Below, piece by piece: positions 2,868-19,487 of a stretch of DNA of 64,000 bases; the first letter of the stretch is position 1, and every line of letters starts with the position of its first letter. The position numbers and the translations under genes are program-made. The notes beneath the pieces are model-generated. The model had not been told where the DNA came from and did no database searches. It saw only the letters and a list, made by a program, of their open reading frames with translations. The stretch is taken from positions 1,434 through 65,433 of the forward strand of contig JAJCZH010000029.1 in the NCBI GenBank assembly GCA_029262515.1, written 5' to 3'. The stretch comes from Deltaproteobacteria bacterium. GTDB taxonomy: Bacteria; Desulfobacterota; GWC2-55-46; JADFVP01.

Positions 2868-2978
2868 CTTCTCCCCTTTAAAAAGCGGCGGGGAGGGATA
2901 AGTTCCCCGCCGCCCAATCTACTACAGTCTATTTCGTTCCAGGTACTGCATCTGATAAAACTTAAACGTGTGACTGTC

Positions 2979-3206: not shown

Positions 3207-3216
3207 TTTTCCCCCT

Positions 3217-4551: not shown

Positions 4552-4576
4552 AACATCGATTCCTCGTGGTTGACAC

Positions 4577-4693
4577 TCAACAGCAGTAACCGATACAGAC
4601 GAAACGCTCGATAATATCGAGGCTCGTGTTGATAAAGATCAGTGCGGTGATGATTATCATGAGCACAATAAGTAGATTAATATCTATCTTCAT
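4577..4693 (-). CDS. Small hydrophobic peptide (38 aa, 'MKIDINLLIVLMIIITALIFINTSLDIIERFVCIGYCC'), not in the ORF track
   Basis: Its ATG overlaps the stop of 4690..5016 as ATGA. It is a single transmembrane-like peptide. Confidence 0.3.
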   Translation of the reverse strand: MKIDINLLIVLMIIITALIFINTSLDIIERFVCIGYCC

Positions 4694-5016
4694 CCCGTCA
4701 GCTCCTCCTCATTGTTGTCCATGCGCTTGATAGCTTCGTCACGGAGGCCTCTGAGCCTCCGGAGCTTCACGATCTCAAAGCTCATGTAATTTATCGAGTC
4801 GAGCAGCTCCAGCTCCGCCTCGAGCAGGAAGTCGCGCGGGTCGGTAGGTATGTCGAGTACTCCGTTCTTTTTCTCGCCCTTAAGGAACTTGCCGAAGGCG
4901 TTAAAGAGTACTCCCATGATCTTGGCGTCGGACGGCGGACGCTCGCTCTCACCCATATCGTACTCGGCAACCAGCCGGTCCATCCGCTCTTGAGCCTCTT
5001 TACTCAGCGGCATCAC
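4690..5016 (-). CDS. Hypothetical protein
   Basis: 108 aa ORF. Overlaps the start of 5013..5651 (ATGA). Confidence 0.5.
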   Translation of the reverse strand: MMPLSKEAQERMDRLVAEYDMGESERPPSDAKIMGVLFNAFGKFLKGEKKNGVLDIPTDPRDFLLEAELELLDSINYMSFEIVKLRRLRGLRDEAIKRMDNNEEELTG

Positions 5017-5651
5017 TCACCCCCTACTTTGACGTCTAAGTTTTTTAGATTGTTGTTAATCCCCTCGATTAACATGTCTACGTCACACAACTCATCCTCG
5101 AACAGCAGTTTCACAGCCTGCAGGACTCTTGCTCTGCAGCTCTCGGTGAGGGGTTCGAGAACCCCTAAAACAGTCTTGAACGGTTCAAGGGGGCTGTCGG
5201 GTGCAGGAGTAACAACAACGGGTGGTATAGGATCATCAAGCGGAGCCTTCCCCTCGGATATAGGCGTATACGTTCCGCCGGTCTTTTTTTCCTTCTCAAC
5301 CGGTTTCTTCTTGGCCTTTTTGGATTTATTCTTGTGGTAATACTCCTTATTGAGACAGGCACGGCACTTGCCCTTCGTGCGGTTGAACCCTGAGAGAGCT
5401 TTCGAGGCTGGCGTTTTACAAACCGAACACTCAGGCTCTTTAGGCTCTGCGGGCTTACCCTTCTGTCCGCGACATACCAGGGATGTACAGCCTTTGGTCT
5501 TCTTCAAGAGCCCGCAGGTCGGACACTCAGCATCACCCGGTTTTGGCTCCTTAGGGTGCATCTCTGCATCCTCGCAATTCATGCAGTAGCGACTATGCTC
5601 CAGTGAATACTTCTTGCACCCCTCTGTCGCACAGATATCTCCGTTAGCCAT
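5013..5651 (-). CDS. Cys-rich multi-zinc-finger protein (several CxxC pairs) with a Lys/Pro-rich linker
   Basis: 'CATEGC', 'CMNC', 'CPTC', 'CSVC', 'CRAC' and further Cys in the first ~120 aa, then a 'KKAKKKPVEKEKK' linker. Confidence 0.55.
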   Translation of the reverse strand: MANGDICATEGCKKYSLEHSRYCMNCEDAEMHPKEPKPGDAECPTCGLLKKTKGCTSLVCRGQKGKPAEPKEPECSVCKTPASKALSGFNRTKGKCRACLNKEYYHKNKSKKAKKKPVEKEKKTGGTYTPISEGKAPLDDPIPPVVVTPAPDSPLEPFKTVLGVLEPLTESCRARVLQAVKLLFEDELCDVDMLIEGINNNLKNLDVKVGGE

Positions 5652-5945
5652 TTATCCCCCCACTCCTGTTTGAACCGGCTTAACCGGCCCGGCGTGATCG
5701 CCCTTTTTAATCTCCGTAACGATCGCAAGCTTTTCCCTCAGTTCATCTATGTCCGGGTTTGCCGCCTCGAAGTAGACGGCCCTCTCGACCTGGCACGTCT
5801 CGAGGCGCCCCCTGATTATTGCCATCTGGTACATTGCGTCCTCGTCGATCTCCGCGCGCTCAAGGTTGCGGCCGTGCCAGATACCGAACTGTATTGCCGC
5901 AATAAGCATGACCGGAAAAAGTATATAGACGGTTGCATTCTTCAT
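5652..5945 (-). CDS. Small membrane protein
   Basis: 97 aa with an N-terminal hydrophobic helix 'VYILFPVMLIAAIQFGIW'. Confidence 0.4.
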   Translation of the reverse strand: MKNATVYILFPVMLIAAIQFGIWHGRNLERAEIDEDAMYQMAIIRGRLETCQVERAVYFEAANPDIDELREKLAIVTEIKKGDHAGPVKPVQTGVGG

Positions 5946-6027
5946 GAGAAAACCCTCCGTAGCAGCAGCCCTACAAGCAGCATAAAACCTATGCAGAAAG
6001 ACTCGGCCAGTATGAGTTCGTGAAACT

Positions 6028-6702
6028 TCAAGAGGCTGCCTCCAGTACGCGCTTTACGCTGTTAGCGAACCACTCACCGCCCTTCTTTGTCGGGACATTG
6101 AACCTGTTCAGCTCGCGCGCAATTCCCTGATAACCGAAGTCTCTATCATCCATATCTATTATCTTGTCGATGATCTTCTGCTCTTCTTCATTCTCTACGA
6201 GCATGCCGTCGACAACATCGTATCCGTAAGATGCATGGTTATAGGCCACACCAGAGGCCTTCAGATAGGCAAGGGCGTCCGTGGTGCGCTCAGAGATGAG
6301 GTTGCGCTCCATCTCGGCACAGGCGGCCATAATCGTGAAGAAGAAGATACCCATTGCAGACTGGGTATCTATAGACTCTGTAACGGAGTGAAAGGCCACT
6401 TCGGCCTCGTTGAACTGACTTGCTGTATCGAGTGCGTCTTTAGCGTTACGGAAGAGGCGGTCGAGCTTATAGACTATAACGGCATCTATTACACCATGTA
6501 AGGCGGCGTCTATTACCGCATGCGCCCCGGGACGATTCTTTATATCCTTGCCAGAAATGCCCTCGTCTCGACAGATGTTTACCAGCTCCAGGTCGTGCAG
6601 CTCGGCGTAGGCCTTGATCTTCGCCTCCTGGTGGGCGATGCTGATGCCCTCCTTGGCCTGCTCCTCGGTCGAGACTCTTATATAACCGAAAGCCTTCTTC
6701 AT
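6028..6702 (-). CDS. Serine recombinase (resolvase/invertase family). ORF-track frame extends to 6750; the start is more likely 'MKKAFGYIRVS' at 6702.
   Basis: N-terminal 'GYIRVSTEEQ' catalytic-serine motif of resolvase-family recombinases. About 224 aa. Confidence 0.8.
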   Translation of the reverse strand: MKKAFGYIRVSTEEQAKEGISIAHQEAKIKAYAELHDLELVNICRDEGISGKDIKNRPGAHAVIDAALHGVIDAVIVYKLDRLFRNAKDALDTASQFNEAEVAFHSVTESIDTQSAMGIFFFTIMAACAEMERNLISERTTDALAYLKASGVAYNHASYGYDVVDGMLVENEEEQKIIDKIIDMDDRDFGYQGIARELNRFNVPTKKGGEWFANSVKRVLEAAS

Positions 6703-6956
6703 GCGCAGACCTCCTTCAGGTGAAGGTTCTTGTCGAGAGGGCGCCGGCAACGCCCGTTGTGCCGGTCCTTACCGCTGCCGCGCTTATGGGCCTTTGTGTA
6801 GTCTTCGATAATACGGCCGCACCTGTCGCATGTGGCCGGATGGACCGAAGTAATCTTGACGATAAAGACCACGCCGCACGGCTTGCAGATATAGTCGTTC
6901 TCCACACGGCCGTAACGCTTAACCCTTTTCGAATCGCAGACCGGGCAACGTCTCAT
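6699..6956 (-). CDS. Zinc-ribbon small protein
   Basis: 'CPVCDS...CKPCG...CDRCG' Cys pairs. Coupled to the recombinase gene. Confidence 0.45.
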   Translation of the reverse strand: MRRCPVCDSKRVKRYGRVENDYICKPCGVVFIVKITSVHPATCDRCGRIIEDYTKAHKRGSGKDRHNGRCRRPLDKNLHLKEVCA

Positions 6957-7414
6957 GCGCCTACTCCTGCACTGACAGAACTCATTGCAGCCCGTAGGTC
7001 GGCTTTAATGGTCGGCCTAAGAAAAGCATCAACCATATGAGAGAGAGTGGCAACCTTGGAGGGGTCTTCATCACGCGCTACCTTGAGGACCTTACCTACA
7101 AGGATCCCCTCGTCGGGGCTTAACTGCAGACCTGCCGAGGCGTGAGCGGCCGGAGCGGAAAGATCGACCGGCATATTCTCCGGCGGCGTTACGCCGTCGA
7201 GGTACATCTTGCCTTCACCGGTCAAGAGCCAGTCGACTGATAGACCTGTAAGCCTTGAGAGCTTAATCACCAGGCTGGGCGGTATCGAACCACGCTTCTT
7301 ATAATTCGACATCGCTTGAGGAGTAACCCCTAGTTTTCTGGCCAGCGCCGAGTCATTCTTTAAGTGGTTGCCCCAGCGCATCCGTTCTACTATCTCCGCA
7401 TAATTCTGTTCCAT
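6953..7414 (-). CDS. CI-like HTH transcriptional repressor (phage repressor N-terminal domain)
   Basis: 'SALARKLGVTPQAMSNYKKRGSIPPSLVIKLSRLTGLSVDWLLTGEG' is a typical CI/Cro-type HTH. Confidence 0.6.
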   Translation of the reverse strand: MEQNYAEIVERMRWGNHLKNDSALARKLGVTPQAMSNYKKRGSIPPSLVIKLSRLTGLSVDWLLTGEGKMYLDGVTPPENMPVDLSAPAAHASAGLQLSPDEGILVGKVLKVARDEDPSKVATLSHMVDAFLRPTIKADLRAAMSSVSAGVGA

Positions 7415-7416
7415 AT

Positions 7417-7605
7417 CTACCTCCCGCTTGGTAGCTCTATGTGGTTATCCCCGGACACCGTGTCCGGAGTATCTGAAAAAAGTATCTTCATCTGGCCGTC
7501 TTCAGGTGCGACGGCATTCAAGAGATCAGCCGGCCTTATCTCTCCGTTAAAAAGACTGTGTACGAGTTCTCTACATGTAACCTGGTCGGTGTTCCTCACG
7601 CTCAA
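7417..7605 (-). CDS. Hypothetical small protein
   Basis: 62 aa ORF coupled to neighbouring genes. Confidence 0.3.
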   Translation of the reverse strand: MSVRNTDQVTCRELVHSLFNGEIRPADLLNAVAPEDGQMKILFSDTPDTVSGDNHIELPSGR

Positions 7606-7781
7606 GTCCTCGACCTCTTCAGCCTCTTCTTCCTGTATGCCTTTATAGCCGCTTCGGTAAAGTGTGCCGGGCGGCCCGGAATGTAGGCTATTTCCCTTGC
7701 GGACATTTTGTTCCGAAGGGTTGACGGCTTCAGCCCTAAAAGCTCAGCAGCTTCGAATGTTGTGTACAGTTTTTCAATCAT
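7602..7781 (-). CDS. Excisionase/AlpA-like HTH DNA-binding protein. ORF-track frame extends to 7841; the start 'MIEKLYTT' at 7781 is more likely.
   Basis: 'LYTTFEAAELLGLKPSTLRNKM...' resembles MerR-type excisionase HTHs. Its ATG overlaps the upstream stop as ATGA. Confidence 0.5.
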   Translation of the reverse strand: MIEKLYTTFEAAELLGLKPSTLRNKMSAREIAYIPGRPAHFTEAAIKAYRKKRLKRSRT

Positions 7782-8296
7782 CTGACCCTCTCTCCAATAA
7801 CTGCGAGCAGCCCCATAACGGCCTGTACTGCCTCCATACACTCTTTGCTGAGCTCCTTGAGCTCGGCCTTCGACACCTTGTTATCCTTGAGAACCTCGGC
7901 CAGCTTCTGGCTCGTCTCCCCGAACTCCTTGTTGTAGGTGAGAATCGCCTGCATCAACTCTTTGTCGGATGTATTGCTTGCCGGCATCTTCACCGGCGGC
8001 ATAAAACCGAAACGGGCGCATAGCCATTCAATTGGCACGTACGCCCTGTCGGGGTCGATCTTTGCAATTGTAGTTATTATGGTTTCAAGACGGTCGAGGG
8101 GATTACGGGCCCCGGACTGGTCGGGGTCGTCAATAGTTGAAGGAGGTGAGCACCACATACGGACGAGCCTACCGGAGAGATGAAGGTCATCAGCAACGAT
8201 CGTCGTATGCCGCCTTATAGTCTCATCAAGCGCCTCAAAAGATTTCCAGTACGCAAGCCCTTCTTTACTCATTGCCGATCCCCGCTTAATCTGCAA
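7778..8296 (-). CDS. Hypothetical protein
   Basis: 172 aa ORF at the head of the leftward transcription unit. Confidence 0.5.
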   Translation of the reverse strand: MQIKRGSAMSKEGLAYWKSFEALDETIRRHTTIVADDLHLSGRLVRMWCSPPSTIDDPDQSGARNPLDRLETIITTIAKIDPDRAYVPIEWLCARFGFMPPVKMPASNTSDKELMQAILTYNKEFGETSQKLAEVLKDNKVSKAELKELSKECMEAVQAVMGLLAVIGERVR

Positions 8297-8387
8297 TTGT
8301 CAGTTGCGCGGCCCTCTGCTACGATTTAGCATGGCCACCTATTTACAACCTACATGGAACCTGATAAACTCAAACTCTAAAAGAGCG

Positions 8388-8432
8388 CAGACAGGCCCGA
8401 ATAAATCTGCCCGATCTCATCGGGCCCGTCTG
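8388..8432. promoter_or_regulatory. Imperfect 13-bp inverted repeat (cagacAggcccga...tcgggcccgtctg) in a divergent intergenic region. Possible operator or structured RNA.
   Basis: 12 of 13 positions are complementary with a 19-nt spacer. Located between divergent gene starts at 8296 and 8535. Confidence 0.3.
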
Positions 8433-8534
8433 CTGGTATCGAGCACCGATCGCGTCGGTAGGTGGGGCCTGCGACCGCCACCGGGCTCAATTCGTTTAAA
8501 AACTTGTTCTGGATCTTCTATATATGGAAAGCTT

Positions 8535-8771
8535 ATGTCTCAAGATATTGAAGAGCCTTATCTTTTAAAATGTCCTAAGTGCTATACTTCGCGTTCAGGG
8601 ACAGGGTGGTCGTCAATAGATGAAAAGCGTCCCTATTGCGCAGGTTGTGGCACACGTTGGATAGCAAAATGTCCCGGTTGCGGTATATTAATCGATCCAA
8701 CATTTCACTCGAAGAAGACTGAAAAAAACTGTGTATCTTGCGGCACATCGTTCTCAGCCACGCCTACCTGA
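8535..8771 (+). CDS. Small zinc-ribbon protein. ORF-track frame 8304..8771; the likely start is 'MSQDIEEPY' at 8535.
   Basis: 'CPKCYT...CAGCGTRW...CPGCG...CVSCG' shows four CxxC pairs. Confidence 0.35.
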   Translation: MSQDIEEPYLLKCPKCYTSRSGTGWSSIDEKRPYCAGCGTRWIAKCPGCGILIDPTFHSKKTEKNCVSCGTSFSATPT

Positions 8772-8922
8772 GTTTATAGGCGCAACAAGGGGCAAACTTA
8801 GCATCAGGATCGTTCCGAAAAATCTCTTTAATTTCTTCAGGGAACTCCATGCTACAGTTTGGGCACTTATCAGGCAGTACGAACATGGCTGTTTTGTTAT
8901 TTTTAAAGTTTTCATTATTCAT
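8764..8922 (-). CDS. Small Cys-containing protein (52 aa, 'MNNENFKNNKTAMFVLPDKCPNCSMEFPEEIKEIFRNDPDAKFAPCCAYKLR'), not in the ORF track
   Basis: Its ATG overlaps the stop of 8922..9182 (TGATG). Confidence 0.3.
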   Translation of the reverse strand: MNNENFKNNKTAMFVLPDKCPNCSMEFPEEIKEIFRNDPDAKFAPCCAYKLR

Positions 8923-9182
8923 CACAGACCTTTTGTTTGATGTGTCGGAGCACCCTGAGCTTCTGAATTTGAAGCATCCAGGAGATTACGCAGTCGCTCC
9001 ACAGAAGGGTTCGGAATAACTACGTGTCTGTGTAGCTTATTGTCCCAAACTCTTAACAAGGTGCCGTCTTGGCATATTGAATCGATAAGCTCCTGTGAAG
9101 ATAAGTCTTCACGGAACCGGTCAAGATCAATAATTTGAATGTTTACTGAGATTTTTTTGTAATGACGTTTTGGTTTACTCAT
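8922..9182 (-). CDS. Hypothetical small protein in the cro position, divergent from the S24 repressor
   Basis: 86 aa ORF. Transcribed divergently from 9272..9898 across an AT-rich 90-bp region. Confidence 0.45.
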   Translation of the reverse strand: MSKPKRHYKKISVNIQIIDLDRFREDLSSQELIDSICQDGTLLRVWDNKLHRHVVIPNPSVERLRNLLDASNSEAQGAPTHQTKGL

Positions 9183-9271
9183 CGCAGGCCCCTTTATTTG
9201 ATGTGTATGGGTAGATATTAGAAGTATTTTTCTAATTTGTCAAGCATATATATAAATTATATTCTATTATT
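9183..9271. promoter_or_regulatory. AT-rich divergent promoter/operator region (cI/cro-like switch)
   Basis: A 'tatatataaattatattctattatt' tract between divergent regulator genes. Confidence 0.4.
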
Positions 9272-9898
9272 ATGAGCACAATCGGTCAAAGACTTAAAAA
9301 TACTAGAAAAAAAATTCTACAAATTTCGCGTGAGAAGTTTGTAGAAGGGCTTTCTATTTCCACAAAAACCCTTGAAAACTACGAAAACGACGGCACCTCT
9401 CCGGATGCCAACTTCTTCACCCTGCTTTGGGGGAAGTACCACGATCAGCTAAGCATGAGCGACCTCGACTGGATTATGTGGGGCAAGCGCATGGAGTACG
9501 AAGTCGCAACAACAACCCCGGTTCTGGGGCGTGTGCCTGCTGGCTTTCCGGAAAACATAGCCGAAGAGGATATACTCGAGTACATAAGCATGCCCGGAGC
9601 GCCGAAGGAGGCCTACTCGCTCATCATCGACGGTAACAGCATGGCCCCCGATATTAAAGACGGCGACTATGTCATTTTTTTGCCTGCAGAGCGCACCAGT
9701 ACAAACCCCGGCGACATAGTCGTCATCAACGACGAGTTCGGGCAATCTATGATAAAGCGCTATGTCCTGAAAGATGGTCAGCCGTACTTGAAAAGCGACA
9801 ACCCCGAGTACCCAGGCTTCGAACCAAATGAACATTACACGGTAATTGGTAAGGTTATTGATGTGTGGAGCAGAAAGAAAATAAGGAGCGCACCGTGA
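9272..9898 (+). CDS. LexA/CI-like repressor with an N-terminal HTH and a C-terminal S24 peptidase domain
   Basis: 'IDGNSMAPDI' is the catalytic Ser motif and 'MIKRYV' carries the catalytic Lys. HTH at the N-terminus. Confidence 0.75.
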   Translation: MSTIGQRLKNTRKKILQISREKFVEGLSISTKTLENYENDGTSPDANFFTLLWGKYHDQLSMSDLDWIMWGKRMEYEVATTTPVLGRVPAGFPENIAEEDILEYISMPGAPKEAYSLIIDGNSMAPDIKDGDYVIFLPAERTSTNPGDIVVINDEFGQSMIKRYVLKDGQPYLKSDNPEYPGFEPNEHYTVIGKVIDVWSRKKIRSAP

Positions 9899-10710
9899 AG
9901 AAGTTGATAATACTGCTATTCGTTCTGGCTCTGCCCGCAATGGCTGAAGCAGCATCCTATAACAAGGCATCGATGTACAACCAACATGGCTTAAGTGCTG
10001 AAGCCAAAAAGGAACTCATCAACCTGATCTACAGCAAGACTACTACTGTCGAAAAAGCAAAGGCACATTATCTTCTAGGCACCATCGCTTTTAATGAAAA
10101 TAATGTAAGAGTTGCACTCAAAACTTGGAAAGACCTTGTCCGCAAGTACCCGAACTCCCAAGAAGCTACCTTAGTTAAAGACCGCATTAAAGAACTGTCA
10201 GATATCGTAGGTGATATTAAAGCCGATACCCTTAAAAACGCTCTGGCACAGACATATTTACGACATGGAGACTTTTGGACCAAGAATAAAGCGAGCAGGT
10301 TTACTATTGACTCAAGCTGGCTACCAAAAGTTGAAATGGCGTTAAAGTGGTACGATAAGGTGATTGCTAAATTCCCAAAAACAGACGCTGCCCGCGTTGC
10401 ATATGAGTCGAAGCTAATGACCTTGCTGGGATGGAAAGATAGAGGACGTAATGCAACTTCATACGGCGTAAGAAAGAGCCTGACAGAATATATGCCTCAA
10501 TTACTCGAAACTTTCGCGGCATTTGAAAAAGACCACCCGGATGCCTCCTCTCTTCAGGCTTATCGTTATCAGATCGCACAAGCGTATTGGGACAATAAAG
10601 ACTGGGATAAAACACGTGAATGGTTAAACACGGTTATAACAAAGGCGGGTGATGCAGATAGCTTTTACAAGGACGCAGCACAAAGACGCCTTGAAAAAGT
10701 CGTGTATTAG
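9895..10710 (+). CDS. Secreted TPR-like repeat protein. GTG start overlaps the upstream stop; the ORF-track frame begins at 9865.
   Basis: Signal peptide 'KKLIILLFVLALPAMAEA'. Helical-repeat composition with 'AKAHYLLGTIAF...' and 'AQAYWDNKDWDKTREWL'. Confidence 0.55.
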   Translation: MKKLIILLFVLALPAMAEAASYNKASMYNQHGLSAEAKKELINLIYSKTTTVEKAKAHYLLGTIAFNENNVRVALKTWKDLVRKYPNSQEATLVKDRIKELSDIVGDIKADTLKNALAQTYLRHGDFWTKNKASRFTIDSSWLPKVEMALKWYDKVIAKFPKTDAARVAYESKLMTLLGWKDRGRNATSYGVRKSLTEYMPQLLETFAAFEKDHPDASSLQAYRYQIAQAYWDNKDWDKTREWLNTVITKAGDADSFYKDAAQRRLEKVVY

Positions 10711-10816
10711 CGCTGTTGAAGGAGATCTTTAATACTTCTGTACCATCGAGGCTGGTGACATGAGTATTGTTAATTTTATAAAATTGAAATAAAGAATATA
10801 AAAGGGAGGCACGTAC

Positions 10817-11230
10817 ATGCTCACCATCTTTGTATTATGGGTCGTACTCGCTGTCGTCGCTGGGATTGTCGCTAATAACAAGAACCGTAGCTCGGTAATT
10901 TGGGCCCTTCTCTGCTTCTTTCTCACCCCAATTCTGCTGCTTATACTCTTGGCCTTACCGAAGCTCGAACCCAAGGCGCCGCATCAAACCGGTAAGCTCA
11001 CGAGAAGGCAAGCATCGTCAGTCACACCTGCACCGATAATGGACGACCCGGGCGAGACTCGTAAATGCCCTTTCTGCGCCGAACAGATACTGGCCGAAGC
11101 GATAATCTGCAAGCATTGTGGCAAAGAGAGCAAGATAGAAAAAGTAGCAGAGAAGTGCTCACGCTGCGGCATCGAGGTACTTGAGGGAGCATCTGAATGT
11201 TTCAACGGTCACTCACAGGACTACTCCTGA
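10817..11230 (+). CDS. Membrane protein with a C-terminal zinc ribbon
   Basis: Two TM segments, then 'CPFCAEQ...CKHCG...CSRCG'. Strong RBS 'aagggagg' upstream. Confidence 0.5.
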   Translation: MLTIFVLWVVLAVVAGIVANNKNRSSVIWALLCFFLTPILLLILLALPKLEPKAPHQTGKLTRRQASSVTPAPIMDDPGETRKCPFCAEQILAEAIICKHCGKESKIEKVAEKCSRCGIEVLEGASECFNGHSQDYS

Positions 11231-11616
11231 TAGGGTTGCTCATTGCAGGGGGGACAGTTTTTGCCATATTGACACAGGGCGCAATTAACGCTTTCGCCGC
11301 GACCATGCACCCTGAGAAGACCTACCAGACCGCATGGTGTGACGAGCATAAAGGGGAAATGGAGTACGTCGTCTCTGGCGGATCCCGGGTTGATTGCCTG
11401 ACCGAGAAGTATGCTGTTGAGGTTGACTTTGCGCATAAGTGGCAAGAGGCGATCGGCCAGGCTCTATACTATGCGCGAAAGACCGACCGGGCCCCGGGCA
11501 TAGTTCTCATTATGGAAAAATCGGGCGACCACAAGTATCTCGGGCGGCTCTTCTATACCATCAAAGAACGAGATGAATTTATAAAGGTCTGGACCATCGG
11601 ACCAGGGGATCTATGA
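11197..11616 (+). CDS. Hypothetical exported/membrane-anchored protein
   Basis: N-terminal hydrophobic helix. Its 3' end 'KVWTIGPGDL*' is repeated as a scar at 12725-12761. Confidence 0.5.
   Translation: MFQRSLTGLLLIGLLIAGGTVFAILTQGAINAFAATMHPEKTYQTAWCDEHKGEMEYVVSGGSRVDCLTEKYAVEVDFAHKWQEAIGQALYYARKTDRAPGIVLIMEKSGDHKYLGRLFYTIKERDEFIKVWTIGPGDL
11578..11616 (+). repeat. Junction repeat copy A: 'ataaaggtctggaccatcggaccaggggatctatga', followed by the vestigial start 'atgagcattaaataa' (MSIK*) of the zinc-ribbon gene
   Basis: Near-identical to 12725-12764. The 'ggatctatga' junction recurs at 13721-13730, and a similar 'ggggagcctatgag' precedes zinc-ribbon copy 1 (12401-12420). Confidence 0.5.
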
Positions 11617-11626
11617 GCATTAAATA

Positions 11627-12112
11627 ATGCCAGTGTCTCTGGCAGTGAAAGGAGCGAGGGATTTGAAGAAGCTATTGATTCTTATAGGTGTGATATTTTT
11701 TATGGGGTGTGCGGCTGCACCTGTTCAACGCGCTGAACCTAAAACAATGGAGTTTCAGCAGCCTTTTGATAAGGTCTGGAGTGCCGCCGTCAGGATCATC
11801 ACTGTCGACAACGACCTGCCTATCCAGGTAATAGAAAAAGATTCCGGAATTATTACCACCGATTGGGTTACTTATGAACGCCCTGTTAAAGGCATGGGTG
11901 AGGCCTTCATGATATCCAGCTCAAATACTACTAACCCGAACATTCAGATACGTTACAAATTGAATATTAGTATTGAGAAGACCGACAACGGAACAGAGGT
12001 TTATATCCGCGATCATGTAGAGCGGTTCAGTGGTATGACTTGGAGTGTTACTAATGAACGCCCCCCGGCTCTTGAGAATATCGCGGCGGACCTGGCGGCT
12101 AGACTAAAATAG
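11627..12112 (+). CDS. Putative lipoprotein. Alternative TTG start at 11663 with RBS 'gaaaggag'.
   Basis: 'LLILIGVIFFMGC' is a lipobox-like signal peptide. Confidence 0.5.
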   Translation: MPVSLAVKGARDLKKLLILIGVIFFMGCAAAPVQRAEPKTMEFQQPFDKVWSAAVRIITVDNDLPIQVIEKDSGIITTDWVTYERPVKGMGEAFMISSSNTTNPNIQIRYKLNISIEKTDNGTEVYIRDHVERFSGMTWSVTNERPPALENIAADLAARLK

Positions 12113-12123
12113 GAGATGGACCT

Positions 12124-12399
12124 TTGGCTCTTATACAATGTCCCGAATGCAATAAAGATATCTCTGACCAAGCGGTAGCCTGCCCCCAATGCGCCCACCC
12201 AATAAAAGCCGTAACCATTGAGGCGACCGGAAAGCGATGGAAGGGTATACAGCTTATCTGTGCCCTATTTATTATAATCGGCGCTTTCTGGGCAGCGAGC
12301 AATACTCAGGGGGGGCCAGCGTTCGGTGGTATTCTTGTAGCGGTGGGGCTTATCGGTTTTATAGTAGCCCGACTGGGCGCATGGTGGGGGCACGGTTGA
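12124..12399 (+). CDS. Zinc-ribbon membrane protein (TTG start)
   Basis: 'CPECNK...CPQCAHP' then two TM helices. RBS 'aggag' 8 nt upstream. Confidence 0.45.
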   Translation: MALIQCPECNKDISDQAVACPQCAHPIKAVTIEATGKRWKGIQLICALFIIIGAFWAASNTQGGPAFGGILVAVGLIGFIVARLGAWWGHG

Positions 12400-12414
12400 T
12401 ATTATGGGGAGCCT

Positions 12415-12564
12415 ATGAGTATTAAAACCATAGACCTGACCCTCAAATGCCCGTCGTGCTCTCACGAGTGGACTGAGCACCTCGAAGTTGGAGAGATTCT
12501 CTTACGTCCACCGTGCCCGAAGTGTACCGACCAGCCAGTTTATATGCTGAAGATTAAAGCTTGA
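12415..12564 (+). CDS. Small zinc-ribbon protein, paralog copy 1 (49 aa, MSIKTIDLTLKCPSCSHEW...CPKCTDQPVYMLKIKA); not in the ORF track
   Basis: CxxC-x17-CxxC. Has two paralogs at 13727 and 15504 (about 70-80% nt identity by eye). Confidence 0.5.
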   Translation: MSIKTIDLTLKCPSCSHEWTEHLEVGEILLRPPCPKCTDQPVYMLKIKA

Positions 12565-12628
12565 GGCCGCCGATGAGACGCCTCCTTATAACAATAAAGG
12601 CAGTAACCATGCTTAGGGAGCTCAGAAC

Positions 12629-12733
12629 ATGAAGAGGTTGCTGGTCTTATTTTTTGTTCTGACTCTGCCCGCACTGGTTGTGGCCGGCGATTCTCCCGTT
12701 ATTAAGCGTTCAATCTTTGGACTCTACCTATAA
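12629..12733 (+). pseudogene. Truncated remnant (34 codons) of a secreted-protein gene paralogous to the 5' end of 9895..10710
   Basis: 'atgaagaggttgctggtcttattttttgttctgactctgcccgca' is homologous to 'gtgaagaagttgataatactgctattcgttctggctctgcccgca'. The ORF stops inside the junction repeat. Confidence 0.4.
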
Positions 12734-12764
12734 AGGTCTGGACTATCACCCGTGAGGATCTATG
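12725..12764 (+). repeat. Junction repeat copy B: 'ataaaggtctggactatcacccgtgaggatctatga', with the ATG now used by the 300-aa cargo gene
   Basis: Matches the 3' end of 11197..11616 plus the zinc-ribbon start context. Confidence 0.5.
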
Positions 12765-13664
12765 AAATCTATAAATGATCTAAATAGACAACTCGTACAG
12801 ATTAAACAAATTTTTCTTCATGGAAAGAAGCATGCTATTAGTAACAACGCCCTCGACAGGCTTCACTCTATAATTTCTTTAGATACAGCTATAGAATACT
12901 TCCTTGTTACTATCATCCACCAAGCTGATATAAAATTACCCCGCAAGGATGAGAACAACTTTGATTCAATCTTCGAAAACGCAAATATAGGGCTTAAAAA
13001 AATTAGAAATAATTCCATCGAACTACCCCATAAAACCGTCATTACAAGTAGAGTACATAAAGTACGAAACGGAGCTTGTCACAGCGGCAATATACCTAGC
13101 ACTGAAAGCATCAATACAGCCTTAATCCACACCGAAACATTTCTTAATGAAACCTTCAAGCTTTGCTTCAATAAGGCTTTTGGTGAGGTTTTTCTTGCCG
13201 ACATGATTGAGCACCAAGAAATCTGCAAGTATTTCAAAAAGGCAGAAGTAGCCATGGAAGAGAATGATCTTGAAAGTTTAACTGTTGAACTCGCAACTGG
13301 CATCCAAATTTTTAAGAATAAAGTCACCTCAGAACTACCAGGCTGGCTAAAGCAAATGGAAAGAACAGACGTCTCCACCACACTTGATGATAACCAAAGG
13401 ATACAAACTGCTCTGGGAGACATAGTAGAGTCGGTTTGCCTCCTTCGAAATTTTACAGTTTTCATTAGCCTTGGATTTACATTCCACGATTTGACACTTT
13501 TTATAGCAAAATTCCCAATTATTAATTTGAGTGTTAGCGGTAATATTCTTGGTGTACATCACGGCCGCATAAAACCCACTATGAGTGAGTGCGTTCACCT
13601 CATGAATGCCTTTTACAACATGATACTTTCATATCAGTCCAGCAATAAATCTATATGCCCATAG
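12762..13664 (+). CDS. AT-rich cargo gene 1: hypothetical 300-aa protein with a candidate HEPN-type Rx4H motif ('RNGACH'). Putative Abi-like RNase.
   Basis: Low-GC coding sequence. 'VHKVRNGACHSGNIP' at about residue 100 fits the R-[N]-x3-H HEPN signature. No other motif recognized. Confidence 0.5.
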   Translation: MKSINDLNRQLVQIKQIFLHGKKHAISNNALDRLHSIISLDTAIEYFLVTIIHQADIKLPRKDENNFDSIFENANIGLKKIRNNSIELPHKTVITSRVHKVRNGACHSGNIPSTESINTALIHTETFLNETFKLCFNKAFGEVFLADMIEHQEICKYFKKAEVAMEENDLESLTVELATGIQIFKNKVTSELPGWLKQMERTDVSTTLDDNQRIQTALGDIVESVCLLRNFTVFISLGFTFHDLTLFIAKFPIINLSVSGNILGVHHGRIKPTMSECVHLMNAFYNMILSYQSSNKSICP

Positions 13665-13726
13665 AAGATAATCAAAGAAACCTAGGCTTACCTCATGTAT
13701 CGAAACACTTTCATCCCTGAGGATCT

Positions 13727-13876
13727 ATGAAAGCCAAAACCATCGACCTGAACCTTAAATGCCCGGCCTGCTCTCACGAGTGGGCGGAGCGCCTCGATAC
13801 CGAGGGCGTATACCTCAACCCCGTCTGCCCGGAGTGTACCGAGCAGCCGGTCTACATTCTAAACATTACGGTCTAA
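13727..13876 (+). CDS. Small zinc-ribbon protein, paralog copy 2 (49 aa, MKAKTIDLNLKCPACSHEW...CPECTEQPVYILNITV); not in the ORF track
   Basis: Preceded by the 'cctgaggatctATG' junction. Its 3' half is nearly identical to copy 3. Confidence 0.5.
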   Translation: MKAKTIDLNLKCPACSHEWAERLDTEGVYLNPVCPECTEQPVYILNITV

Positions 13877-13970
13877 ACCAAGGTTTCAATCCAAGTAGGT
13901 TGCGAATAAGTGTTGTGTTAGAGGACACGTCGCATTGTATTCAAGGCACACTAGAAATCAAACGAGGTGA

Positions 13971-15431
13971 TTGATGGAATATTTTAAGCTTGGAGACATA
14001 TTTTTAGGTTTGAATGACGGAAAGAAGGAGGCATTAATTAGAAGTGATTTTGAAAGATTTTTTTATGATCATGAAAACATTCATGATCAAGTTATGAAGC
14101 CTCAAAATTTTTTGATCCTAGGTAAAAAGGGTTCTGGGAAAACAATTTTGGCTGAATATATAAATAAAACTTCTAAAAAGGATCCGCTGTGGTTCAGCGA
14201 GATAAGATCTTATAAAGATTTTAAATTTCATGAATTAGTCCAACTAAAAAGCGATGATATCAAACCTAATGAATATATTTCAATATGGGAATGGGTAATT
14301 CTATTAGATTTGGCAAGGCTTATACTACAAGATCAAGGTATCGACAATGTTGAGCTACGCAATAAATTAGAAAGTTTTTATACAAATAATTATTATTCAA
14401 TTGATATTGACTCTGGAAGGGTTGTTGAAATTACCAAAGAAAACCAAATAACTGGTACCATTCCAACTTCAATCGTAAATTTATCAGCGGGGCATGCCTC
14501 TAAATCAACAAAAGTTTCTGGAAGTTATTTTAATTATTTAGAAGGTTTGAGAGAAGTTGTGCTTGGCTTGCTAGAAGGATCGAGCAGTAAATACACCGTT
14601 TTTTATGATGAACTAGATGATCGCTTTAGAGATAATGAGTTTTATAAAGATGGTATTATCAGTTTGATAAAAGCAGCTGATAAGGTTAATTTGGAACTAC
14701 TGAGAAGAAATGTCGATGCCAAAATATCAATTTTGCTAAGGTCGGACATTTTCTACATACTTAATGACCCCGATCTTAATAAGATAAAAATGGATAATTC
14801 CTTGGTAATCGATTGGGGTAATATTGTGTCACAACAATCTCCTCTTTTTAAGTTGATTCTATCAAAGATCAGGACGTCTCTACCAGCCATAGAAAAGAAA
14901 AGTGATGATCAACTTTTTTCTTTATTGTTCCCTCAAGGAATTAAAGGTATTGATCCCGAGAGGTATATACTTGAAAGGACTCTCTTCCGCCCTCGGGATG
15001 TAATAACAATGTTGAACCTAATAATAAAAAAATATCCGAAGACTGGTTATTTTGGCTGGAAGGGTTTTATAGATATTAAGAAAGCTTATTCAGAGTATTT
15101 TTTTCAAGAAATAAGGAATGAGTTGTGTGGACATTTGAGCGATAAAGAAATAGATCAATCAACATTAATGATTAAACAATATAATAAGCACTTTTTTTAT
15201 TTTGATGAAATCAAGGAGTACCACAAGAAAAATATCGCAATCTATCCAGATATAAATTTAGAGAAAATTTTAAGATTATTTTTCAAATTTAATATAATAG
15301 GAAATACGTGGTTCAACAAATATAAAAATAGAAACTACTATTGTTGGGCTTATCGGGATAATAAGGCGGAAGTCGACTTTAAGAAGAAGTTTGTCATTCA
15401 TCTAGGCTTAAGAGAAGAGCTATCACTATAA
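13971..15431 (+). CDS. AT-rich cargo gene 2: KAP-family-like P-loop NTPase (putative defense/abortive-infection ATPase)
   Basis: Walker A 'LGKKGSGKT' near residue 52. Walker B 'VFYDELDD' about 160 aa later, which is the long A-B spacing typical of KAP NTPases. 'FRPRDVITMLNLI' resembles the KAP 'PRxIKRxxN' motif. Very low GC. Confidence 0.6.
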   Translation: MMEYFKLGDIFLGLNDGKKEALIRSDFERFFYDHENIHDQVMKPQNFLILGKKGSGKTILAEYINKTSKKDPLWFSEIRSYKDFKFHELVQLKSDDIKPNEYISIWEWVILLDLARLILQDQGIDNVELRNKLESFYTNNYYSIDIDSGRVVEITKENQITGTIPTSIVNLSAGHASKSTKVSGSYFNYLEGLREVVLGLLEGSSSKYTVFYDELDDRFRDNEFYKDGIISLIKAADKVNLELLRRNVDAKISILLRSDIFYILNDPDLNKIKMDNSLVIDWGNIVSQQSPLFKLILSKIRTSLPAIEKKSDDQLFSLLFPQGIKGIDPERYILERTLFRPRDVITMLNLIIKKYPKTGYFGWKGFIDIKKAYSEYFFQEIRNELCGHLSDKEIDQSTLMIKQYNKHFFYFDEIKEYHKKNIAIYPDINLEKILRLFFKFNIIGNTWFNKYKNRNYYCWAYRDNKAEVDFKKKFVIHLGLREELSL

Positions 15432-15503
15432 ACCCTCATTAGTAACGCTGTGATGGCCTGCCGTACAGCTCTTCATTCGGGCGGCCATCTACCCAAGGAA
15501 TTT

Positions 15504-15647
15504 ATGAAGACCATCGACCTGACCCTAAAATACCCGAAGTGCTCTCACGAGTGGATAGTGCGCCTCGATGCCGAGGAGGTCTACCTCAACCCCGTCTGTC
15601 CAGAGTGTACCGAGCAGCCGGTCCTTATCCTTAACATCACGGTCTAA
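15504..15647 (+). CDS. Small zinc-ribbon protein, paralog copy 3 (47 aa, MKTIDLTLKYPKCSHEW...CPECTEQPVLILNITV). The first Cys is replaced by Tyr.
   Basis: Inside ORF-track entry 15450..15647. Homologous to copies 1 and 2. Confidence 0.45.
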   Translation: MKTIDLTLKYPKCSHEWIVRLDAEEVYLNPVCPECTEQPVLILNITV

Positions 15648-15751
15648 GCCAGAGAACAGCATTCAAACCTCATTATCCAAATTTAGCATGATCAAGAGTA
15701 CTTCCTGTAGTCCGCACATTCCAACCACGCTTCCACATGCAACACTTCTAC

Positions 15752-15796
15752 CGGAAATAAACAAAGCCCACCAGTCATTACGACCAGTGGGCTTCA
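15752..15796 (-). terminator. Hairpin ('aagcccac'/'gtgggctt', 8-bp stem) with a T-rich tail on the minus strand. Likely terminator for the PEP-CTERM gene.
   Basis: Lies between convergent genes. The minus-strand read gives a stem-loop then 'tttgtttatttcc'. Confidence 0.35.
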
Positions 15797-15817
15797 AAAC
15801 CTTCTGATTTAAAACTC

Positions 15818-16471
15818 TTACTTCTTAAACCTTCTTCTCACAAACCCAAGACCTGCAAGGCCACTTCCGAGAAGGAGGAGGGTTGAGGGTTCTGGGACTG
15901 AGGCAAGAGTAATCGTAGCATCAACTGCCGTCCATCCGTGTTCGGTGTTACCTCCGTTATTTGTAAGCAGAAAGTCAACATGGTTCCCCGCAACTAGATC
16001 AAGGTTGAGCAGAGAGAAAGATGCTGTATCCAAATAGGTAGTAATGTAATCGCTAAACACAACTACACCGTTGATGGCGACATAAACGCGGTTATTAACG
16101 CTTCGGTTGTCAGTCCCAGTGAAAGCTCCTGTCACGTCATAGTTACCCGCCGTTGAAGCGGTCCAGCGCACCACTGGAAAACCATTCGAATTGTCTTTCG
16201 CCCACAAATGCGGACCATAAACAGCCCACTGGTCTGCAATACTCGGACCACCGTGCCCGTAGTTGCCCAGAAACCAACCGTCTGACCAACGTACGTTCAT
16301 AACATCTATCGTGCTAGCAGTCACGGTGGTCGTTCTTCCATAAGTCCAGTCGCCATTTGGGTTGGTAGTAGTCGAGTAGTCGCCTGAGATTGAGGCGGCG
16401 TTTGCGCTCTGAGCCAGAGTAAATCCGAAACAGAGTACCAGGGTTAAAATAGCGATATACATTTTTTTCAT
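15818..16471 (-). CDS. PEP-CTERM sorting-domain secreted protein
   Basis: N-terminal signal peptide. C-terminal 'VPEPSTLLLLGSGLAGLGFVRRRFKK' is the canonical PEP-CTERM exosortase signal (PEP motif, TM helix, Arg cluster). Confidence 0.7.
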   Translation of the reverse strand: MKKMYIAILTLVLCFGFTLAQSANAASISGDYSTTTNPNGDWTYGRTTTVTASTIDVMNVRWSDGWFLGNYGHGGPSIADQWAVYGPHLWAKDNSNGFPVVRWTASTAGNYDVTGAFTGTDNRSVNNRVYVAINGVVVFSDYITTYLDTASFSLLNLDLVAGNHVDFLLTNNGGNTEHGWTAVDATITLASVPEPSTLLLLGSGLAGLGFVRRRFKK

Positions 16472-16849
16472 AATATTCTCCTAAACATCGAATTATATAC
16501 TTATATTAAATTGTACTTGATGGGTTACTTAATTAAAAATGCAAGATGCATGCCACTACCTCTTCGCTGCCGTAACCATCTGTTTTGCTTACTAAAGAGC
16601 GTTAGGTGGCGAACTTAGTGGTTCTATATGGGGCAACAAAGTGTAAAGAAACATAACGAGCGAAATTACATAAAGAGCACAGTTCTCAAATAAGACCTTA
16701 TACTCCAGCAGGTTATGGAGTTTTCAATATGTGTAAAAATATTTGACAATGCTGGAAGAATTTACATAAAAGAGGCTTGTTAGATAGATAAGGAAGCGAT
16801 CGTGCAATATTTCTTTTGGTAATCATGTAGATTGAGCCTACCCTTAAAG

Positions 16850-16874
16850 TGCGTAGTAGTAGGTGTACTACGCA
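16850..16874. promoter_or_regulatory. Perfect 9-bp stem hairpin (tgcgtagta-gtaggtg-tactacgca) about 55 nt downstream of the integrase stop
   Basis: Read directly from the sequence. No T-tail follows, so it may be an operator or arm-type site rather than a terminator. Confidence 0.25.
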
Positions 16875-16928
16875 TCTTACACCCATCCTACAGCAAGCAC
16901 TTCCTACTGATCATGCCCCACCTACCCT

Positions 16929-17993
16929 TCACAGCAAATTGATCTCGTCATGCGTCTCTTCTATCGGTATATGAGCGTAATGCTTTGTCGTTACATCCAC
17001 GCTTGAATGGCCGAGGTACTGGCTCACAAGATAGATGGATACTCCCCTCCGGAGAAGGTGGCTACCGAAAGTCTCACGAAACGTCTGTATGGTGAGCCCC
17101 TCAACATCAATTCCGGCAACCTTGCCTATGGTCTTCAACTTACGGTTCAGGTTATTAGCTCTCGGATCCCCGTCTTTTGTAGGAAAGCACCACTTGCTAT
17201 CAGAATCCATTGCCAGGAACAGCTCACGCAGCTCCCTGTGCAGTGGAATCTTCCTCTCCTGATGATCCTTGATCTCATTCTCTTCTTTGCTCCGTACCAG
17301 CAGGTAGCCCTCATCGAAGTTAATGTCTCTCGGCTCCAGGTGTATTAACTCCCCGAACCTCAGGCCGGCGTAGTAAGCTGTGGCGAAGAGCGGGTAAAAG
17401 TCGGGATCCCGCTTCTTGATTGTTTTGAGCAAGGTGCTTATGTCTTTTAATGAAAGGTCCCTGAAGAGCTTCTTTGTAGGCTTGTCTGCCCGGACTTCCT
17501 TCGCAGGGTTGTCCGGTATATAACCCCTCTTCATGGCATAGCCCAGCACGGCCCTTAACGCCCTCAGGTCTGCACGCGCGCCGCCCGGGGTTTTCTTTCG
17601 TGCTTTTCCACCTTCTTTCTTGGCTCTACTATAAAAGCCCTCTTTTCTCTTATTGTAAAAGATCTCTACGGTATCGATATCTATTTCGGATATAAGCTCG
17701 ATACCCTCGTCTTCACAGAAATCAACAAAGATGCGCTTGCGCGTCCGGTACCATCGTTTTGTCGCTTCTCGAGGCGCTCGCTTCTCAATATATGCATCAA
17801 AAACCTCAGCGACCGACTTTTTTAATATGAGATGTTTGGACCGGTGCTTCTGTCTGCCCTCGAGTTCCTCGTAGTCCCGCAATAGGGCCGAAGCTGCGGC
17901 CTTTGCCGTTACCCTCAAAGATTTCTGAGCAGACACGCCGCCGTCCACATAGCCGACCCACCAGATTTTACCGCGCTTATAGATGTAAGCCAT
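16929..17993 (-). CDS. Tyrosine site-specific integrase (phage integrase family)
   Basis: C-terminal catalytic region '...HLLRRGVSIYLVSQYLGHSSVDVTTKHYAHI' carries the R...H-x-x-R...Y pattern. It lies directly next to the tRNA gene. Confidence 0.85.
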   Translation of the reverse strand: MAYIYKRGKIWWVGYVDGGVSAQKSLRVTAKAAASALLRDYEELEGRQKHRSKHLILKKSVAEVFDAYIEKRAPREATKRWYRTRKRIFVDFCEDEGIELISEIDIDTVEIFYNKRKEGFYSRAKKEGGKARKKTPGGARADLRALRAVLGYAMKRGYIPDNPAKEVRADKPTKKLFRDLSLKDISTLLKTIKKRDPDFYPLFATAYYAGLRFGELIHLEPRDINFDEGYLLVRSKEENEIKDHQERKIPLHRELRELFLAMDSDSKWCFPTKDGDPRANNLNRKLKTIGKVAGIDVEGLTIQTFRETFGSHLLRRGVSIYLVSQYLGHSSVDVTTKHYAHIPIEETHDEINLL

Positions 17994-18140
17994 AAATGTA
18001 AGTCTATTGTAAGTTAGAAAGTGAAACTAAATGAGATTGAGTGAAGTATAGTGAACTTACAGAGAAAAGTCAAGAGGGGTGCTTAATGTAAAAACCCCTT
18101 GATAATACTAAAAAATTAGCATTACCAAGGGGTTATATTA

Positions 18141-18217
18141 TGGCTCCCGGGGAGGGATTCGAACCCCCGACAAGGTGATTAACAGTCACCCGCTCTGCCA
18201 GCTGAGCTACCCGGGAA
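18141..18217 (-). tRNA. tRNA-Asn (anticodon GTT)
   Basis: Reverse complement 'TCCCGGGTAGCTCAGCTGGCAGAGCGGGTGACTGTTAATCACC...GGTTCGAATCCCTCCCCGGGAGCCA'. 7-bp acceptor stem, anticodon loop 'CTGTTAA', T-loop 'GGTTCGAATCC', 3' CCA. Confidence 0.8.
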
Positions 18218-18394
18218 TAGCAAGCAATAGGCTAAAATGTTAAGGAGACATATTATACTTACGAGTACTTCAAGTCAAGAATTTTATAGCACCTTTACGA
18301 AGCATCGTTAGAGTATCGGTTGCAAAGAGAGGGGACTTGATGCCATTTCCGCTCTTTTTTCCAGACTCGTCACGCCCTCTTATACTGCCAAACC

Positions 18395-18919
18395 CTATTT
18401 CCAGATTCCGACCCCGGCCTGCTTCGCTTTATCCTCCAGACCTAGCAGCTCTTCTCGTTTCTCCGTGCCGCATGGCGGTATCAAGAGCGTTTTCGCAAAG
18501 CCCTCTTCGAGCAATAGCCCGTTAACGAAAAATCCGTCCACATAGACCCAGCCGAGTGTCCTTCCGTACTTGTCCTTCGGCTCCCCTCTACAGACTCGCA
18601 ACTCGATCTCTTTACCCTTTACAAGCTCGGCATTTCTCTCTCTTGCGGCCTCATATAACGGCTCGCCGCGCTCAGGCGTATCTATTCCTATATACCTTAC
18701 TATCAGACCGCCGGAGGTCCTTACGGTATCGCCATCATATACAAAAGCCACGGTCTGCTTACCGCCCTCTTCGGGTTTCATCGCCGTGGCCATGCCCTCT
18801 GCCAGATCGAAAGGCGCTGCAACAAAGAGCGTAACAAACAGCACAAACGTACCCATAACGATTGCAAAGAGCGCTCTACTCCCACGGATTCTTCTTATCA
18901 TAAATATAATTGGAAGCAC
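18395..18919 (-). CDS. Thermonuclease (staphylococcal nuclease, SNase-like) family protein with an N-terminal membrane anchor
   Basis: 'VYDGDTV...YIGIDTPE' matches the SNase catalytic core. Confidence 0.7.
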   Translation of the reverse strand: MLPIIFMIRRIRGSRALFAIVMGTFVLFVTLFVAAPFDLAEGMATAMKPEEGGKQTVAFVYDGDTVRTSGGLIVRYIGIDTPERGEPLYEAARERNAELVKGKEIELRVCRGEPKDKYGRTLGWVYVDGFFVNGLLLEEGFAKTLLIPPCGTEKREELLGLEDKAKQAGVGIWK

Positions 18920-18926
18920 AAAAAGC

Positions 18927-19487
18927 CTACCATTTTTCCCTGAATTTATGCAACTTATCCTCCAAGGTGACTATCTCTTTCTTGATACTCACACAATCTA
19001 TCTTCTCGCTCTCAAGCGCCTCCCTTATCTCCTTGAGCTTGGTCATGGAAAGGCTTGAGAGCTTATTATACTCTATGCTCATCTGCTCGAACTCGGAAAG
19101 GAATTTATTGGCGGAAGCAACGAAATTTCTTATATGGAGGTCGTCCTTGTTCCGTACCGTCAACCTTCTGTCGTACTCGCCTCCGGCGATTCTCTTCATC
19201 TCATACTCAAGCCTTCTGAACGGCCCTATGAGGCGATGGGCGAAAAAGAGCGCGAGCAGAACTACGATTGCGATATAACCGACTATTAGCAGCACACCGA
19301 GCACCGGGGTAGCAAAACCGAAGTGTGTTGTCAGGGCCTTGGAAATGGACTGGAGCACCAGGCCGCCCAAGAGCGCAAGCACGGCCAGCACAGCAATACT
19401 CAATTGCAACTCTCTGGCCGCGAACGACTTGTGACGCAACGGTTTGCCCGATTCGCTCTTGTTCTTTACAGGCTTCGGCTCGGTCAT
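18927..19487 (-). CDS. Membrane protein with a HAMP-like and coiled-coil region
   Basis: Two TM helices followed by a 'HRLIGPFRRLEYEMKRIAGGEY' amphipathic segment. Confidence 0.45.
   Translation of the reverse strand: MTEPKPVKNKSESGKPLRHKSFAARELQLSIAVLAVLALLGGLVLQSISKALTTHFGFATPVLGVLLIVGYIAIVVLLALFFAHRLIGPFRRLEYEMKRIAGGEYDRRLTVRNKDDLHIRNFVASANKFLSEFEQMSIEYNKLSSLSMTKLKEIREALESEKIDCVSIKKEIVTLEDKLHKFREKW

Follow-up and report, generated by a model that had tools for sequence, protein, structure and literature searches.

A P-loop ATPase of the Fun/Z (Sll1717) family in the accessory region of a deltaproteobacterial prophage-like element as a candidate anti-phage gene

The 64,000-nucleotide stretch of DNA analyzed here, referred to as the window, is derived from a Deltaproteobacteria bacterium (assembly GCA_029262515.1, contig JAJCZH010000029.1, positions 1,434 to 65,433 of the forward strand) and carries a prophage-like element whose accessory region includes an AT-rich gene of horizontal origin for a P-loop ATPase of 485 amino acids. 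Sequence comparison assigns this protein, hereafter the window ATPase, to the Fun/Z family as a distant member; the family includes the Fun(Z) protein of phage P2 and corresponds to the Sll1717 family (NF047389). A preliminary description of the locus had proposed the protein as a candidate defense effector belonging to the KAP family of NTPases. In our analysis it is a strong candidate for phage defense, on a basis other than the KAP label, because the protein belongs to the Fun(Z) family and its gene is placed in the accessory region of a prophage. We consider it probable that the gene represents a single-protein, prophage-borne anti-phage system of the Fun/Z ATPase type, which would act by superinfection exclusion or abortive infection, and a defense function of the window ATPase as such appears likely.

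The family assignment is based on the match to the NCBIfam model NF047389, 'P-loop ATPase, Sll1717 family' (294.5 bits compared to a cutoff of 75, E 1.6e-87), which spans residues 13-484 of the protein and positions 2-454 of the 454 positions of the model and was the sole strong match in NCBIfam. In PHROGs the window ATPase matched phrog_13260, to which no function is assigned (E 3e-76), and Pfam returned P-loop-level matches below threshold alone (Sigma54_activat, AAA_16, nSTAND3, NACHT). The family is large: among 1.84 billion cluster representatives, 4110 were recovered by profile search at E <= 1e-3, of which 2554 remained at E <= 1e-10, and several close homologues carry the UniRef name 'FunZ protein'. 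A tblastn search of phage genomes resulted in four records; in two of these, both phage P2 genome copies, the match was to fun(Z). Since P2 Fun(Z) also matches NF047389 above the cutoff (209.3 bits, E 1.1e-61), aligns with the profile of the window ATPase family over 466 columns in hhalign (99.2% probability, E 1.6e-19), is similar to the window ATPase in BLASTP (20% identity, E 4e-10) and is itself named 'P-loop ATPase, Sll1717 family' by NCBI, the window ATPase can be placed in the Fun/Z family. According to the P2 genome record, the cloned fun(Z) gene blocks the growth of phage T5, is nonessential, is involved in lysogenic conversion and confers sensitivity to fluorodeoxyuridine (FUdR). Fun/Z has been described as an abortive-infection or defense system of the P2 prophage whose molecular basis is not established (PMC11990801), and a literature search on 'Sll1717' found no paper. 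The 'funA-funZ' genes of Glaesserella are unrelated, their names standing for 'function unknown', and most other literature matches to 'FunZ' are likewise unrelated.

The window ATPase and P2 Fun(Z) (NP_046777, P79669; also Z/fun) resemble each other in several respects. Each is encoded by a single gene that constitutes an AT-rich moron of a temperate phage, the proteins are of similar size (485 and 528 amino acids, respectively), and they have in common the Walker A motif, a D-x-x-D type Walker B motif, an R-P-D sensor-1 region and the RPRD motif. The GC content of the window ATPase gene is 0.312 compared to 0.497 for the whole window, and the same contrast is found for P2 fun(Z), with 0.328 for the gene and 0.51-0.56 for its flanks. 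In contrast, the identity between the two proteins is only about 20%, and Fun(Z) lacks both the N-terminal D-G-x-x-E motif and the H476 that are invariant in the clade of the window ATPase. Moreover, the P2 gene is found between tail operons while the window gene lies between repressor and integrase, and within this comparison the phage-blocking phenotype on record is that of P2 Fun(Z) alone, not of the window clade.

In its layout, the genetic setting of the window ATPase gene (window positions 1-18216, Table 1) corresponds to the immunity and accessory region of a temperate phage that has a tRNA gene as its integration site. The CI/LexA-type repressor gene is divergent from a set of minus-strand genes and heads a plus-strand row of small genes, with the ATPase gene near the end of the row. 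Similar to the cI-rexAB arrangement of phage lambda, the ATPase gene is thus found 3' of the repressor gene on the same strand, and by analogy this placement suggests expression in the lysogen. No promoter-like site was found directly upstream of the ATPase gene, and a hairpin that follows the row is likely to mark the end of the transcription unit if it is used on the plus strand. The tRNA-Asn gene, the only kind of RNA feature recovered in a scan with Rfam, probably marks the point of integration and the right-hand end of the element. Because no direct repeat of its 3' end, as expected of an attachment (att) site, was present within window positions 1-19000, the left end of the element probably lies beyond the window, before position 1.

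The open reading frame (ORF) of the window ATPase extends on the plus strand from position 13971 to 15431, and its translation results in 486 amino acids from the TTG at 13971 or in 485 amino acids from the in-frame ATG at 13974. The ATG is favored as start codon because a Shine-Dalgarno-like GAGGTG is located six bases 5' of it, at the distance of a ribosome-binding site, and because the identical database protein (P0001) comprises 485 amino acids; all residue numbers refer to this version. The ORF and the motifs named in the preliminary description were confirmed, with GKKGSGKT starting at residue 50, VFYDELDD at residue 209 and FRPRDVITMLNLI at residue 338. The view that the protein is a P-loop NTPase in which Walker A and Walker B are unusually far apart held as well, since 159 residues separate the starts of the two motifs and their key residues were invariant in an alignment of 38 homologues sharing 39-63% identity with the window ATPase. 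In total, 174 database homologues were found, many of them at E < 1e-100. The presence of these homologues and of the invariant residues, together with the low a priori likelihood of a 1.46-kb ORF at a GC content of 0.31, argues that the ATPase motifs are not due to chance, and the motifs for ATP binding and hydrolysis are intact. The alignment also revealed a conserved PNEY..IWEW segment within an insert of approximately 125 residues that follows strand beta2.

An AlphaFold2 model calculated from the 38-sequence alignment had a mean predicted local distance difference test score (pLDDT) of 89, which fell below 50 in residues 164-180 only, and a predicted template modeling score (pTM) of 0.87. 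In this model the core of the ATPase is formed by strands beta1 (residues 47-50), beta2 (73-79), the Walker B strand (206-212), beta4 (249-256), which ends in the invariant R256, and beta5 (276-279). Approximately 40 conserved residues precede the core, and a helical lid with the RPRD motif and a C-terminal domain follow it, while the insert after beta2 consists of four soluble helices and a beta-hairpin with its low-confidence tip at residues 164-180. Judged from this fold, the LLRSD motif would place an arginine at the sensor-1 position, similar to STAND NTPases, and FRPRDVITMLNLI is probably a sensor-2-like arginine motif. The best structural neighbors of the model were STAND, ORC and TnsC-type ATPases, followed with lower scores by PAB2304, MuB, DnaA, Avs5, plant NLRs, CED-4 and the RADAR protein RdrA. 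A Foldseek search of BFVD with the model gave no match at E <= 0.001 and failed to recover Fun(Z), and among PDB sequences nothing but P-loop matches was found.

According to the model, the window ATPase is composed of a complete nucleotide-binding domain, a helical domain and a winged-helix domain of the STAND/ORC type. The earlier suggestion of a STAND-like protein was thus supported by the predicted three-part layout but not by profile searches, in which hidden Markov models (HMMs) of STAND families (NACHT, NB-ARC, nSTAND1-6, AAA_16) gave no significant match to the window ATPase (nSTAND3 E 0.018, AAA_16 E 0.017); the best values among its relatives (6.1e-5 for nSTAND3, 1.7e-6 for AAA_16) were also below threshold. 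Besides the three domains, the protein shares with STAND NTPases such as Avs, NACHT and NB-ARC proteins and archaeal ATPases, e.g. SSO1545, the second acidic residue in Walker B and the arginine after strand beta4, and longer relatives of it carry N-terminal effector-like domains. It differs from STAND NTPases in the 125-residue insert after beta2 and in the lack of a C-terminal repeat sensor and of an effector domain, neither of which was recognizable in the window ATPase, which ends with the winged helix. Since no effector domain could be recognized, the label 'effector' in the preliminary description is doubtful, and the protein looks more like a sensor or switch module.

The longer relatives just mentioned are distant members of NF047389 with 775-892 amino acids and N-terminal extensions (loci L052:6960-9353, L073:7044-9371, L056:6897-9329, L067:7215-9893 and L044:7416-9806). 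The 797-residue protein of L052 has an N-terminal nucleoside 2-deoxyribosyltransferase-like domain (Nuc_deoxyrib_tr, 2.2e-7, 31.4 bits compared to the Pfam threshold of 28.8), a weaker domain of this kind is found at the N-terminus of the L073 protein (8.7e-4), and both proteins gave faint matches to the TIR effector model of PADLOC. These observations suggest that effectors have been fused to a Fun/Z-type ATPase module in the longer family members, and such fusions would be consistent with a common module that works as a switch driven by nucleotides and is able to accept effectors. The window ATPase itself gave only weak PADLOC matches, to mad8 and PDC-M28C, a result that is uninformative because PADLOC has no Fun(Z) model. 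A further relationship was indicated for DS-41 (NF053860), which is listed among the phage-validated systems in the DefensePredictor study. Three distant Sll1717 members (L010, L016, L049) matched the DS-41 model with E values of 1e-8 to 3e-12, whereas the window ATPase did not match it at E <= 1. Because all scores were far under the NF053860 cutoff of 370 bits, DS-41 is considered a related but distinct family, and the matches hint at a wider superfamily of related defense ATPases.

How the window ATPase might act against phages can be outlined only tentatively, and we regard the mechanism of switching and oligomerization described here as plausible but with a somewhat lower than even chance of being correct. 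In the lysogen, the ATPase gene would share a transcript with the CI-type repressor gene and the small genes 3' of it, and its product would at rest be an autoinhibited monomer with bound nucleotide. On superinfection, a cue from the lytic phage might then be sensed by the winged helix and/or by the conserved insert between Walker A and Walker B, in which PNEY..IWEW and the flexible tip of the hairpin are found. ATP-driven oligomerization could follow, possibly on nucleic acid by analogy to ORC, Cdc6, TnsC and MuB, and the assembled oligomer would either block phage DNA transactions or replication or kill the cell. Since an enzymatic effector domain is lacking, the inhibitory step would probably be carried out by the oligomer itself or by the conserved 40-residue N-terminus. 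The FUdR sensitivity conferred by P2 fun(Z) is compatible with an activity on DNA replication or on nucleotide pools and does not distinguish between the two.

The contexts in which relatives of the window ATPase are found elsewhere are individually mobile or defense-like, with one exception. An all-against-all comparison of flanking ORFs at 80 loci of relatives revealed no gene family common to more than 5 loci and therefore indicates that the unit is a single gene. The relative in Desulfotalea psychrophila is flanked by a prophage integrase and an HNH protein, that of Geobacter adjoins smpB, and that of Aeromonas adjoins an integrase remnant and an insertion sequence (IS) element. A homologue with 48% identity on chromosome 2 of Vibrio anguillarum (L084:10001-11449) is found in a cassette region preceded by infC-rpmI-rplT and an integrase of the integron type, and appears to be a chromosomal integron cassette. 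In the Bacillus amyloliquefaciens group the homologue (L136:8001-14448) directly follows rlmH and adjoins a Schlafen-group-3-like helicase and a 1009-residue AAA_11/AAA_12 helicase, so that this locus looks like a small defense island. The exception is the Rufibacter relative, which was found in the ordinary-looking setting of a glycosyltransferase cluster. In addition, relatives are encoded in 46 viral contigs of IMG/VR, in 12 of which the gene is no more than 500 nt from the contig end.

Three other explanations of the window ATPase have to be weighed. According to one of them, it would be a P-loop NTPase of the KAP family, related to PifA and QatA and functioning as a membrane-associated defense NTPase. 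A KAP-like layout is present, as Walker A at residue 50 is followed by a long spacer, the D-x-x-D Walker B at residue 209 and the PR motif at residue 338, in the order and with the spacing (approximately 150-160 residues between the Walker motifs) of PifA. Furthermore, an hhalign comparison with a PifA alignment was collinear over 315 columns and paired the two Walker A motifs, DELDD with DDLDR, and RPRD with TPRE; two UniRef homologues have names including 'KAP'; and KAP NTPases are likewise ATPases of the additional strand, catalytic E (ASCE) division with a long Walker A-B insert and a PR motif in the lid, are borne on mobile elements and include members that act against phages. However, this hhalign comparison, in which only the narrow PifA clade stood for the KAP family, reached a probability of 2.1% (E 0.023), and the KAP family label was not borne out by the HMM search that the preliminary description had proposed. 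The KAP_NTPase model (PF07693) gave no match to the window ATPase at E <= 1, to any of the 38 aligned homologues at E <= 0.1, to any of 10 further near and distant relatives at E <= 1, or to Fun(Z) and six extended relatives at E <= 0.01, while the positive control, PifA of plasmid F, matched it with 148.5 bits (3.2e-43) and had no match to NF047389. Overall, a PF07693 match was missing from the window ATPase and from 47 relatives. Likewise, a precomputed PF07693 match is carried by each of the 119 PifA homologues listed with more than 420 amino acids, and by none of the 120 that are listed for the window ATPase. Transmembrane helices inserted in the NTPase domain are reportedly common, albeit not universal, in the KAP family. 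The window ATPase has no such helix (Kyte-Doolittle hydropathy peaks at a 19-residue mean of 1.27, within a helix containing D, E and R), is shorter than KAP NTPases, ends at the winged helix, and has STAND, ORC and TnsC-type ATPases as best structural neighbors. In summary, the window ATPase is KAP-like in the layout and spacing of its motifs and was not placed in the KAP family by the HMM searches; we consider KAP membership very unlikely, and the similarity could point to a deeper common origin of those ASCE NTPases whose Walker B is of the D-x-x-D type.

The structural neighbors also suggest an ATPase serving the DNA transactions of the element itself, either as replication initiator or loader or as a target selector similar to TnsC, MuB, ORC or Cdc6, instead of a defense protein. 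Several observations make this explanation highly improbable: the P2 homologue is annotated as a nonessential, lysogenic-conversion gene, no transposase or replication partner is conserved beside the family members, the element has its own primase and single-stranded DNA-binding protein (SSB) across the immunity region, and a GC content of 0.31 is that of foreign cargo, not of a core gene. The third explanation assumes a multi-gene system in which the ATPase would cooperate with neighboring ORFs in a toxin-antitoxin-like or sensor-effector set. Three paralogous zinc-ribbon ORFs (47-49 amino acids, CPxC...CPxC) bracket two AT-rich genes, the ATPase and a 300-residue ORF, on the same strand and with short spacers; they are under purifying selection, with a ratio of nonsynonymous to synonymous substitutions (dN/dS) of approximately 0.27, and the 300-residue ORF contains the R-x4-H string RNGACH. 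Neither type of ORF was found beside any of 87 other family loci, though, and the zinc-ribbon ORFs had no relatives in metagenome or viral contigs, while a single homologue of the 300-residue ORF was found (61% identity, 260 amino acids) among 5.8 billion proteins. Moreover, the zinc-ribbon ORFs match the host element in their GC content (0.49-0.56), unlike the cargo genes (0.31-0.37), and the P2 record reports that cloned Fun(Z) blocks T5 growth. A multi-gene system is thus quite unlikely compared to the single-protein Fun/Z ATPase proposed here.

Table 1. Features of the window around the Fun/Z family ATPase gene.
Feature	Position	Strand	Details
DnaG-type primase	991-2037	-	
SSB	3752-4372	-	
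Serine recombinase	6028-6750	-	
Cro/CI-type helix-turn-helix (HTH) protein	6953-7414	-	
CII-type regulator	7778-8296	-	
CI/LexA-type repressor (HTH + S24 peptidase)	9272..9898	+	Peptidase_S24 1.7e-18, HTH_19
Zinc-ribbon ORF	12415-12564	+	paralogue of zn2, zn3
300-aa AT-rich ORF	12762-13664	+	GC 0.37; 5' of ATPase
zn2, zinc-ribbon ORF	13727..13876	+	49 aa; directly 5' of ATPase
Fun/Z (Sll1717, NF047389) family P-loop ATPase CDS	13974..15431	+	485 aa; ORF list, NF047389, PHROG 13260
N-terminal motif NDGKKEA	14013..14033	+	residues 14-20; D15, G16, E19 invariant in alignment
Walker A GKKGSGKT	14121..14144	+	residues 50-57; K52, G55, K56 invariant
Insert between strand beta2 and Walker B strand	14211..14588	+	~125 residues; AlphaFold2 secondary structure and alignment
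Walker B VFYDELDD, D-x-x-D type	14598..14621	+	residues 209-216; D212, D215 invariant
LLRSD, end of core strand beta4	14733..14747	+	residues 254-258; R256, D258 invariant
FRPRDVITMLNLI in helical lid	14985..15023	+	residues 338-350; R339, P340, R341, D342 invariant
C-terminal winged-helix domain	15039..15428	+	residues 356-485; Y372, Y375, E379, E383, H476 invariant
zn3, zinc-ribbon ORF	15504..15647	+	47-aa paralogue; directly 3' of ATPase; first Cys -> Tyr
16-bp hairpin	15762..15796	.	between plus-strand row and convergent PEP-CTERM gene; T-run on minus strand
PEP-CTERM sorting-signal protein gene	15818-16471	-	PF07589, 1.2e-7; between accessory row and integrase
Tyrosine integrase	16929..17993	-	Phage_integrase 3.3e-24
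tRNA-Asn (GTT)	18141..18216	-	ARAGORN; Rfam tRNA 65.9 bits

The zinc-ribbon ORFs can be regarded as real genes because of their normal GC content and their dN/dS ratio. The 300-residue ORF gave no match in Pfam, NCBIfam or PADLOC; its RNGACH string shows a putative resemblance to a HEPN-type motif. A repeat of approximately 35 nt that ends in GGATCTATGA is present at 11580-11616, 12729-12765 and 13707-13739, i.e. at the end of ORF 11197-11616, before the 300-residue ORF and before zn2, respectively, and could serve these genes as a common leader for translation initiation or be the scar of a recombination event between gene modules. The arrangement looks like foreign cargo inserted between tandem zinc-ribbon paralogues, possibly via recombination at the repeated leaders. 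An integron-cassette interpretation of the repeats was rejected, since they are coding paralogues and not attC-like hairpins, and since the integrase, which is transcribed towards the gene row, is a tyrosine recombinase of the ordinary kind next to a tRNA gene.

Going further, one could raise two proposals that we consider unlikely, namely that short Fun/Z-type proteins are STAND-like switches that stop phages without an effector and, separately, that the alternation of zinc-ribbon and cargo genes (zn-cargo-zn-cargo-zn) is a lineage-specific recombination scaffold for the swapping of defense morons within a prophage. An effector-less switch might, for example, polymerize in an ATP-dependent manner on phage replication intermediates by means of the beta2 insert and the winged helix. 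If true, this would represent a mode of defense that has not been described for STAND or KAP NTPases. At the right-hand side of the accessory row, the gene for a PEP-CTERM sorting-signal protein is an unusual cargo for a prophage.
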